Notes: generated from the sequence alone by a model not told the origin. A DNA stretch of 64,000 nt from Escherichia coli (GCF_003334385.1 NZ_QOWN01000001.1); one strand, 5' to 3'. Shown: positions 15,392-17,822, counted from the stretch's first letter. A program made the numbers and translations.

Positions 15392-17008
15392 ATGCTCAGT
15401 CAAATTCAACGCTTTGGCGGCGCGATGTTCACGCCAGTGCTGCTGTTTCCCTTCGCCGGGATTGTGGTGGGTCTTGCCATCTTGCTGCAAAACCCGATGT
15501 TTGTCGGGGAATCACTGACCGATCCGAACAGTTTATTCGCGCAAATCGTACACATTATTGAAGAGGGCGGTTGGACGGTATTCCGTAATATGCCGCTGAT
15601 TTTTGCTGTCGGTTTACCCATTGGCCTTGCTAAGCAAGCGCAGGGGCGTGCTTGTCTGGCGGTGATGGTGAGTTTCCTGACCTGGAACTATTTCATCAAC
15701 GCGATGGGAATGACCTGGGGAAGCTACTTCGGCGTCGATTTCACTCAGGACGCGGTGGCAGGTAGCGGTCTGACAATGATGGCCGGGATTAAAACCCTCG
15801 ATACCAGCATTATCGGCGCAATTATCATTTCCGGCATTGTGACGGCGCTGCATAACCGTCTGTTCGATAAAAAACTGCCGGTTTTTCTCGGCATTTTCCA
15901 GGGGACGTCTTATGTGGTGATTATCGCCTTCCTGGTGATGATCCCCTGTGCCTGGCTGACGTTGCTCGGCTGGCCAAAAGTACAAATGGGGATTGAATCT
16001 CTGCAAGCGTTCCTGCGTTCGGCGGGTGCACTTGGGGTCTGGGTTTACACCTTCCTCGAACGTATTCTGATCCCAACCGGTTTACACCACTTCATCTACG
16101 GACAGTTTATCTTTGGTCCGGCAGCTGTTGAAGGCGGCATTCAGATGTACTGGGCGCAGCATCTGCAAGAGTTCAGTTTGAGCGCCGAGCCGCTGAAATC
16201 GTTGTTCCCGGAAGGCGGTTTTGCCCTGCACGGTAACTCAAAAATCTTTGGTGCCGTGGGCATTTCTTTAGCGATGTACTTCACTGCCGCACCGGAAAAT
16301 CGGGTAAAAGTGGCGGGCTTGCTGATTCCCGCAACCTTAACCGCCATGCTGGTGGGAATTACCGAACCGCTGGAATTTACCTTCCTGTTCATTTCACCGT
16401 TGCTGTTTGCGGTACACGCCGTGCTGGCGGCCTCAATGTCGACCGTAATGTATCTCTTTGGTGTGGTGGGCAACATGGGCGGAGGTCTGATTGACCAGGT
16501 TTTACCGCAAAACTGGATCCCGATGTTCAGCAACCACGCGGATATGATGCTGACCCAAATCGCCATTGGGTTGTGCTTTACCCTGCTGTACTTCGTGGTT
16601 TTCCGCACACTGATTCTGCAGTTCAACATGTGCACGCCGGGACGTGAAGATGCGGAAGTGAAACTCTACTCAAAAGCCGAATACAAAGCCTCGCGAGGCC
16701 AAACCACCGCGGCAGAGCCAAAAAAAGAGCTGGATCAGGCTGCCGGTATCCTGCAAGCCCTGGGCGGGGTCGGCAATATCTCCAGCATTAACAATTGCGC
16801 GACGCGTTTACGTATTGCACTGCATGACATGTCACAAACGCTGGATGACGAAGTCTTTAAAAAGCTGGGAGCGCACGGCGTCTTCCGTAGTGGCGATGCC
16901 ATTCAGGTGATCATTGGTCTGCATGTATCTCAGCTGCGTGAACAGCTCGATAGCTTAATTAATTCTCATCAATCAGCAGAAAATGTTGCCATTACGGAGG
17001 CAGTATAA
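15392..17008 (+). CDS. glvC: PTS alpha-glucoside-family EIICB component (intact, fused)
   Basis: ORF 15131-17008 carries a spurious N-terminal extension; real start [10 protein letters not shown] (538 aa). Glucose-family EIIC followed by the EIIB cysteine motif ([12 protein letters not shown]). Confidence 0.85.
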
Positions 17009-17822
17009 TGACCAAATTCTCAGTGGTTGTCGCAGGCGGTGGAAGCACCTTTACGCCAGGCATCGTGTTGATGCTCCTGGCGAATCAGGACCGTTTCCCG
17101 CTTCGTGCACTGAAATTTTATGATAACGATGGTGCGCGGCAGGAAGTGATTGCCGAAGCCTGTAAAGTCATCCTTAAAGAAAAAGCGCCGGACATTGCGT
17201 TTAGTTACACCACCGATCCTGAAGTGGCATTCAGCGACGTTGATTTTGTCATGGCGCACATCCGCGTCGGCAAATACCCGATGCGCGAACTGGATGAAAA
17301 AATCCCGCTGCGCCACGGCGTTGTTGGTCAGGAAACTTGCGGACCCGGCGGAATAGCGTACGGCATGCGTTCCATTGGCGGCGTCCTGGAACTGGTGGAT
17401 TATATGGAAAAATATTCACCAAATGCCTGGATGCTCAACTACTCCAACCCGGCAGCCATTGTCGCAGAAGCCACGCGTCGTCTGCGCCCGAATGCGAAAA
17501 TCCTCAACATCTGTGACATGCCAATCGGTATTGAAAGCCGGATGGCGCAAATTGTTGGGCTGCAAGATCGCAAACAGATGCGCGTGCGCTACTACGGCCT
17601 GAACCACTGGTGGTCGGCGATATCCCGCAGTTTCAGAAAGGGTTAATGAGTCAGCAAGTGGCGGTGGAAAAACTGGTCGTGGACGCCTGGGAACAGCGTT
17701 CATATCAGCACCTGTGGCAGGCGATTACGTTGTCGAAAACGGTACCGAGCGCCTCGGTCGCCAAAGCTATTCTGGATGAGTTGCTGGAGGCCAACAAAGC
17801 GTACTGGCCAGAGTTACGTTAA
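17008..17822 (+). pseudogene. glvG: 6-phospho-alpha-glucosidase (GH4) pseudogene with internal deletion/frameshift
   Basis: N-terminal 212 aa (GH4 Rossmann [12 protein letters not shown]) ends at YYGLNH; the C-terminal 70 aa ([15 protein letters not shown]...) continues in another frame at 17610-17822; several hundred bp of central GH4 sequence are missing. Confidence 0.8.

Follow-up and report, generated by a model that had tools for sequence, protein, structure and literature searches.

glvG in the alpha-glucoside phosphotransferase locus of Escherichia coli: a pseudogene bearing the signature of a deletion between short direct repeats

The closest described counterparts of the glv locus of Escherichia coli are the aglA/aglB genes of Klebsiella pneumoniae and the glvA/glvC genes of Bacillus subtilis. 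The locus is considered here as it stands in a 64,000-nucleotide stretch of E. coli DNA (GCF_003334385.1, NZ_QOWN01000001.1; the window), in which positions 17008-17822 hold glvG, the remnant of a 6-phospho-alpha-glucosidase gene of glycoside hydrolase family 4 (GH4), next to glvCB, which encodes an alpha-glucoside enzyme IICB (EIICB) of the phosphotransferase system (PTS). AglA (an EIICB) and AglB of K. pneumoniae are encoded by the same gene pair in the same order as glvCB/glvG, and allow E. coli K-12 to grow on isomaltose and on sucrose isomers by means of the enzyme IIA for glucose (EIIA-Glc) of the host (PMC5309279). AglB is full length and active, whereas the hydrolase of the window lacks codons 201-370. 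In B. subtilis, GlvA (MalA, 1u8x) is a GH4 redox-elimination enzyme dependent on NAD+ and Mn2+, and GlvC (MalP) is an EIICB devoid of an EIIA domain (PMC5309279; PMC10628242). GlvA is functional and is the more distant relative of GlvG, the N-terminal fragment of which is 93% identical to the sequence of PDB entry 6dux. The latter, for which the database shows the molecule name only, is taken here to be a Klebsiella protein. The two B. subtilis genes stand in the other order, that of the hydrolase coming before that of the transporter. By analogy, the design of the glv locus would be that of both systems, uptake and phosphorylation by the EIICB being followed by hydrolysis by the GH4 enzyme.

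The glv system of K-12 counts as cryptic, and its glvG is a textbook pseudogene. Published work already speaks of the aglA and aglB homologues in K-12 as cryptic or truncated (PMC5309279). The locus of the window is the one first described from the K-12 sequence: in MG1655, glvG (b4556), glvB (b3682) and glvC (b3683) lie at the same locus, with the same neighbours (yidE, yidP, yidL and yidK), the same remnant and the same P238Q change in the transporter. The 815 bp at 17008-17822 show zero differences from MG1655 glvG, likewise 815 bp, and the sole base that differs from MG1655 across 14300-18800 is position 16496 of the plus strand, where the C of the window is a T in K-12. This T turns CAG into TAG (Q369*) and yields the separate genes glvC and glvB, whereas the window, with CAG, has one 538-codon gene. 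The first 25 kb of the window are also essentially identical to several natural isolates (e.g., strain N61), and nearly so to K-12, so that the DNA comes from a strain resembling K-12 but probably distinct from it. The remnant is the already annotated pseudogene b4556, a known and ordinary feature, and its assignment as the glvG pseudogene of the yidP-glvCB-glvG alpha-glucoside PTS locus, taken jointly with the whole explanation given below, is held with high confidence. The initial annotation of the window, made from the sequence alone, had rightly called glvG a deletion pseudogene and made no mention of its identity with b4556. Full-text literature searches for glvG and for glvC/glvB found no population genetics, and the additions made here are small: the exact lesion, its repeat-mediated origin, a distribution of roughly 48/30/21% and an apparent single origin.

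The lesion in glvG

The plus-strand open reading frame at 17008-17646 encodes 212 amino acids (aa), of which residues 1-200 align gap-free to residues 4-203 of 6dux_A, a 6-phospho-alpha-glucosidase of solved structure (E = 6e-128), and also match B. subtilis GlvA (1u8x, E = 8e-109). Homology ends at ...YYGLNH and is followed by 12 unrelated out-of-frame codons and a stop. The 3' fragment at 17610-17822 (VVGDIPQFQ...WPELR, plus strand), corresponding to codons 371-440 and the stop, aligns to residues 375-442 of 6dux_A (E = 6e-35); it keeps the original frame, but this differs from the frame starting at 17008. Chance matches are ruled out by these E-values, and about 170 residues are missing from the middle of a roughly 440-residue enzyme, with the frame shifted. 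The initial annotation had placed the break after YYGLNH and the out-of-frame resumption at VGDIPQFQ, and both positions were confirmed by the extents of the 6dux_A and 1u8x matches. It had also proposed that several hundred bp of central sequence were missing, a figure to be sized against intact homologues; alignment to the intact E. coli alleles gives exactly 508 bp.

These alleles were reached by way of partial E. coli proteins (P0002 and P0084), their contigs and then a DNA search with the central segment, the protein search with the 200-aa fragment having returned only proteins shorter than about 350 aa, among which P0001, P0002 and P0084 run past the break. At this locus, E. coli B, O157:H7 PA20 and WP5-S18-ESBL-07 carry a stop-free glvG of 1323 bp and 440 codons, and intact 440-aa alleles were found at the same position in E. 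coli B, O157:H7 and 11 further sampled genomes; the ancestral state is therefore full-length glvG. The allele of E. coli B/BL21, O157:H7 and enterotoxigenic E. coli H10407 (e.g., WP_000160104.1) is the orthologue at the same position, with 98.6-99.6% DNA identity to the parts retained in the window and with the first 200 residues 100% identical between the E. coli B protein and the window. It has both copies of the repeat GAACCACT with 508 bp between them and is a functional coding sequence in RefSeq, whereas the window has neither feature.

In the three intact alleles, GAACCACT was found at nt 594-601 (...CTGAACCACTTTGGC...) and at nt 1102-1109 (...CCAGAACCACTGGTGG...), 508 bp apart, whereas one copy survives in the window, at the deletion junction (17601-17608, plus strand). 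Nine breakpoints score equally, corresponding to microhomology of 8 bp, and the sequence context on either side agrees in all three alleles. The junction sequence CTGAACCACTGGTGGTCGG is common to 14 of 14 sampled deletion alleles. Codons 201-370 are lost as 168 whole codons and two partial ones, hence the frameshift. As far as structure can tell, the lesion is what a deletion between short direct repeats typically leaves behind, and the repeat arrangement points to replication slippage or another form of microhomology-mediated joining as the mechanism.

The consequences for the enzyme are severe. In the intact allele, the Pfam domain Glyco_hydro_4C (PF11975) covers residues 195-415, and 170 of these 221 residues (about 77%) are lost in the window, whereas the N-terminal NAD+-binding Rossmann-type domain PF02056 (found in the intact allele at residues 6-184, and precomputed for P0003, an identical protein of 212 aa) is retained. 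Of the features expected of a GH4 member, glvG thus keeps the N-terminal NAD+-binding domain, but its C-terminal domain is incomplete, the catalytic tyrosine is missing and no single frame runs through the roughly 440 codons. Since no NCBIfam model scored above cut-off for this GH4 enzyme, the intact allele included, the family assignment rests on the PDB and Pfam matches. In the literature on GlvA, Cys171, Asp172, His202 and Tyr265 are reportedly metal-ligand or catalytic residues, and these map, with a constant offset of 2, to C169, D170, H200 and Y263 of the E. coli enzyme. The first three are present in the 5' fragment and Y263 (in NTYLKYY) lies inside the deleted segment, so that, given these roles and this offset, the metal ligands would have been kept and the tyrosine base deleted. 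GH4 enzymes carry out oxidation, elimination, hydration and reduction within one active site (PMC10628242), and this reaction is not to be expected of a fragment from which the greater part of the C-terminal domain is missing. The loss of hydrolase function proposed in the initial annotation is borne out by the missing 508 bp, the frameshift and the absence of most of the catalytic C-terminal domain, and glvG is, on these grounds, a relic of a GH4 gene and not a GH4 enzyme.

The sequence of events would be as follows. The ancestral gene, of 1323 bp, would have encoded a 440-aa family-4 6-phospho-alpha-glucosidase dependent on NAD+ and Mn2+, hydrolysing the phospho-alpha-glucosides supplied by the EIICB encoded just upstream. 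One 508-bp deletion between the GAACCACT copies would then have removed codons 201-370 and shifted the frame, leaving a Rossmann-type N-terminal fragment with a 12-codon nonsense tail, an untranslatable 3' remnant and a dead enzyme.

A fragment of this kind might nevertheless be alive, with the 212-aa product, or a frame-restored 271-aa product, having a retained or new function. The translation signals of glvG are intact: its ATG overlaps the glvCB stop (17006-17008) by one base, and a strong Shine-Dalgarno sequence, GGAGG, read directly from the sequence at 16996-17000 of the plus strand, lies 7 nt 5' of the ATG, so that transcription of the operon, if it occurs, would lead to a truncated product of 212 aa. 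Codons 1-200 show 100% identity to functional alleles, and in the E. coli sequence cluster P0004 (271 aa) both glvG fragments are fused in frame. The 5' identity is, however, explicable by the low divergence among alleles, and 77% of the C-terminal domain, with the conserved Tyr263, is gone. In two deletion alleles (L013 and L014), the 3' remnant has acquired a further CAG-to-TAG stop, at the equivalent of window 17718-17720, as would fit ongoing decay. In other lineages the gene has been lost by frameshift, by truncation associated with an insertion sequence (IS) or by deletion of the whole block, and such varied routes speak for decay and not for maintenance. A living glvG fragment is accordingly regarded as highly improbable. 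Two more deletion genomes are annotated with an 'internal stop'.

Distribution and origin of the deletion

The population survey covered 5,426 complete E. coli genomes, with counts taken from the identity bands of short queries. A 4.5-kb query (14300-18800) was matched in 5,419 of them, many at 100%. A 90-bp junction query was exact in about 2,606 (~48%) and, in a further 1,669, matched either with mismatches or in two parts separated by about 508 bp; the deleted central segment was present in 1,653 (~30%), and in about 1,140 (~21%) yidE adjoins yidL without any glv genes. The 815-bp remnant is annotated in RefSeq as a frameshifted pseudogene in every sampled deletion genome, whereas 13 of 13 sampled alleles annotated as a functional 6-phospho-alpha-glucosidase had an open frame. 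These data refute the idea that the break is a sequencing or assembly artefact concealing a continuous GH4 frame: an error would have had to arise identically in about 2,606 independently assembled complete genomes, many K-12 resequencing projects included, and in the face of the consistent RefSeq pseudogene flag it is next to impossible. The continuous frame on resequencing that the initial annotation named as its refutation has therefore not appeared. One deletion genome (L020, strain HS-02) has a 26-base T-rich filler (TTTTTTTTTTGTTTTTTGTGGGAAA) exactly at the junction, equivalent to window 17608/17609, which is probably an assembly error and could be a real insertion.

The remaining genomes revealed other routes of loss. 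In strain HM670 (O2:H1; L021, 384-474; window equivalent 14384-17850), yidE is separated from a somewhat shortened yidL by about 70-100 bp of the yidP 3' end and then about 38 bases without a match, and this remnant shows that the yidP-glvCBG block (~3.4 kb) was deleted there and not simply never acquired. In L003 (6927-8600), glvG is cut short at about codon 297 by an IS200/IS605-TnpB element, and the genes from yidL to yidI are missing. In L005 (5864-7186), the 1323-bp glvG has lost one base at nt 83 and gained one near nt 862, so that it is broken by frameshifts at unchanged length; its central segment is matched at 99% identity or more in about 13 genomes, and the GlvCB of L005 has three private missense changes, partly common with a Shigella sonnei protein. 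E. coli is losing the glv locus by several independent routes, of which the window has the commonest. An IS200/IS605 element with TnpB (InsQ) was also observed directly 3' of glvG in L015, L016, L028 and L029 (~4120-5900), replacing yidL-yidI.

Whether the common deletion occurred once or many times was approached through haplotypes, in a sample of 14 deletion alleles, 13 full-length ones and L005, each taken with its flanking sequence. Over about 1 kb on the 3' side, the yidL haplotype is nearly invariant in 14 of 14 deletion alleles, whereas at least five haplotypes were found among 10 full-length alleles. At yidL +363 (window 18185), A was found in all 14 deletion alleles and G in all 10 full-length alleles having yidL (Fisher p = 5e-7), and at yidL +618 (window 18440), 13 of 14 deletion alleles have G and 10 of 10 full-length alleles have A. 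The linkage of +618 had been perfect until the sample was enlarged, whereas that of +363 stayed so. A 61-mer with the linked yidL A was exact in 2,517 genomes, near the junction count of 2,606, the two sets not being cross-tabulated.

Several points weigh against a single origin. Upstream of the junction, at least two haplotype groups are represented among the deletion alleles, and every one of the four possible allele combinations occurs at a site 144 bp from the breakpoint, so that either recombination or recurrent deletion is needed. The sample of 14 and 13 genomes is drawn from ranked hit lists rather than from a phylogeny, and the genome counts, being short-query identity bands, were never cross-tabulated per genome. 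Under recurrence, the GAACCACT repeats would be a slippage hotspot at which the same 508-bp deletion arose repeatedly, its frequency reflecting that repetition, and deletions between 8-bp direct repeats are indeed a known recurrent class of mutation. The two 5' haplotype groups each resemble a different intact allele, the 5' 593 bp of the window are identical to the intact allele of L015, and all four combinations occur at alignment column 450. Recurrence does not, however, account for a single yidL haplotype in 14 of 14 deletion alleles, with at least five in the 10 full-length ones and the association at +363, and the upstream diversity is explained by recombination, which is evidently common at this locus, the glvCB haplotypes being mosaic (e.g., L013). 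Repeated deletion is therefore considered quite improbable. Because of the shared yidL haplotype, a single old deletion with later upstream recombination appears much more likely, within the modest sample. The deletion would have occurred once, on a chromosome marked by the two yidL single-nucleotide polymorphisms, and would then have reached about half of sequenced E. coli, recombination afterwards shuffling the sequence upstream of it.

The orphaned transporter

The initial annotation had described the upstream gene as an uninterrupted 538-codon EIICB fusion, and this was found to be so: glvCB (15392-17008, plus strand) opens with the ATG at 15392, continues uninterrupted up to its stop codon at 17006-17008 and is an intact coding sequence in the Prokaryotic Genome Annotation Pipeline annotation of identical genomes. 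The 538-aa protein scores 954.7 bits against TIGR02005 (alpha-glucoside IIBC; cut-off 607.3), residues 2-523 corresponding to positions 1-524 of the model. It has the GITE motif (VGITEPLEF, E325) and the phosphorylatable EIIB cysteine (NNCATRLR, C469), both of which the alignment shows to be conserved. GlvCB is without an EIIA domain. Its homologues AglA and GlvC depend on the EIIA-Glc (Crr) of E. coli (PMC5309279), and by analogy GlvCB of the window would need Crr in trans. The description of the transporter as potentially functional is thus upheld as regards the open frame and the TIGR02005 match, but, with P238Q and the need for Crr, the frame does not establish function.

P238Q is the one residue at which GlvCB of the window differs from the consensus E. 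coli protein. Codon 238 (16103-16105, plus strand) is CAG (Gln) in the window, and Pro is found there in the intact-glvG genomes and, invariantly, in 12 of 12 homologues (80-99% identity). The residue aligns with P217 of E. coli PtsG in the substrate-gating hairpin HP1b, and with Q at 238 the window departs from the HP1b consensus GLHHF(I/V)YGPFIFGP. In PtsG, P217 adjoins the glucose-contacting residues H211, H212 and N215 and the gate residue Q219 (PMC11393339). Among codon-238 61-mers, the Q allele was exact in 1,783 genomes and the P allele in 2,139, with other variants in 353. Q238 occurred in none of 13 intact-glvG genomes and in 7 of 14 deletion genomes sampled, and for this reason it probably arose after the deletion. 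The K-12 T allele (Q369*, split glvC/glvB) was found in 348 genomes, the 25 listed including MG1655, C600, J53 and other laboratory strains.

GlvCB was of the consensus type in 3 of the 14 deletion genomes, with missense changes in 9 and disruption in 2 (K-12 Q369* and a 7-bp frameshift in L022), whereas among the 13 intact-glvG genomes 9 were consensus, 3 missense and 1 interrupted by a stop (W109*, L028). In a first comparison, synonymous and nonsynonymous sites in glvCB numbered 20/7 in genomes with broken glvG and 44/2 in those with intact glvG (p = 0.011; 8 and 6 distinct sequences), and in the enlarged sample of 14 and 13 they numbered 21/8 and 48/6 (p = 0.07). Relaxed constraint on glvCB is not claimed, since the p value of the small sample was not sustained in the larger one. 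Rare GlvCB variants of E. coli and Shigella have lost 33-70 aa in frame, and of the nine listed, six are on a Q238 background. Judged from these sequences, the transporter is less likely to be a functioning orphan importer than to be impaired or silent; its impairment is probable only, and the 3 of 14 deletion genomes that encode consensus GlvCB count against it. In a GlvCB of Escherichia albertii (P0129, 513 aa), 25 residues including the GITE motif are absent, and from its sequence the system looks inactive there also.

The missense changes of the broken-glvG genomes (n = 15) are clustered in HP1b. Five of seven distinct changes fall in residues 238-247 (window 16103-16132), namely P238Q, F241L, G242C, P243L and E247K, all found in broken-glvG genomes only, whereas in the intact-glvG genomes (n = 13) none of five missense changes and one nonsense change (W109*) lies in this segment. 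The probability of at least five of 7-8 changes falling in any 10-residue window is below 1e-4 under uniform placement, and the contrast between broken and intact genomes, counted as events, gave p = 0.044. With so small a sample, the cluster is a lead and not a result. It raises the tentative, and on balance doubtful, idea that after glvG loss the orphaned EIICB was repeatedly altered in HP1b by selection rather than drifting neutrally. If true, the selection may have been against toxic build-up of unhydrolysed phospho-alpha-glucosides, or for retuning to a GlvG-independent substrate.

Neighbouring genes and significance

The gene order of the window is yidE-yidP-glvCB-glvG-yidL-yidK. On the minus strand, yidP (14383-15099), annotated under this name in identical genomes, encodes a divergently transcribed GntR/HutC-type regulator, the NCBIfam matches of which are GntR family models, all under their curated cut-offs; from its position, YidP is presumed to regulate the glv operon. 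A promoter scan of the yidP-glvC intergenic region gave no sigma-70 consensus match and was uninformative. On the other side, yidL (17819-18712, minus strand) encodes an AraC-type regulator and carries the deletion-linked A at 18185 and G at 18440. The yidP gene of E. coli B (L007, 845-1482) has a 79-bp deletion and a frameshift, and that of strain A29 (L030, 196-833) is annotated as frameshifted, with glvCB and glvG intact in both. If YidP is a repressor, these two strains might express the glv operon constitutively.

The significance of the findings is small overall. The glv locus offers a clean natural case of stepwise operon decay and could serve to follow the fate of a PTS transporter after loss of its hydrolase. 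It is also a three-state polymorphism, with the deletion in ~48% of genomes, the full-length gene in ~30% (including E. coli B/BL21 and O157:H7) and the block absent from ~21%, so that isomaltose, isomaltulose and other alpha-glucosides may not be used alike by common laboratory and pathogenic strains.

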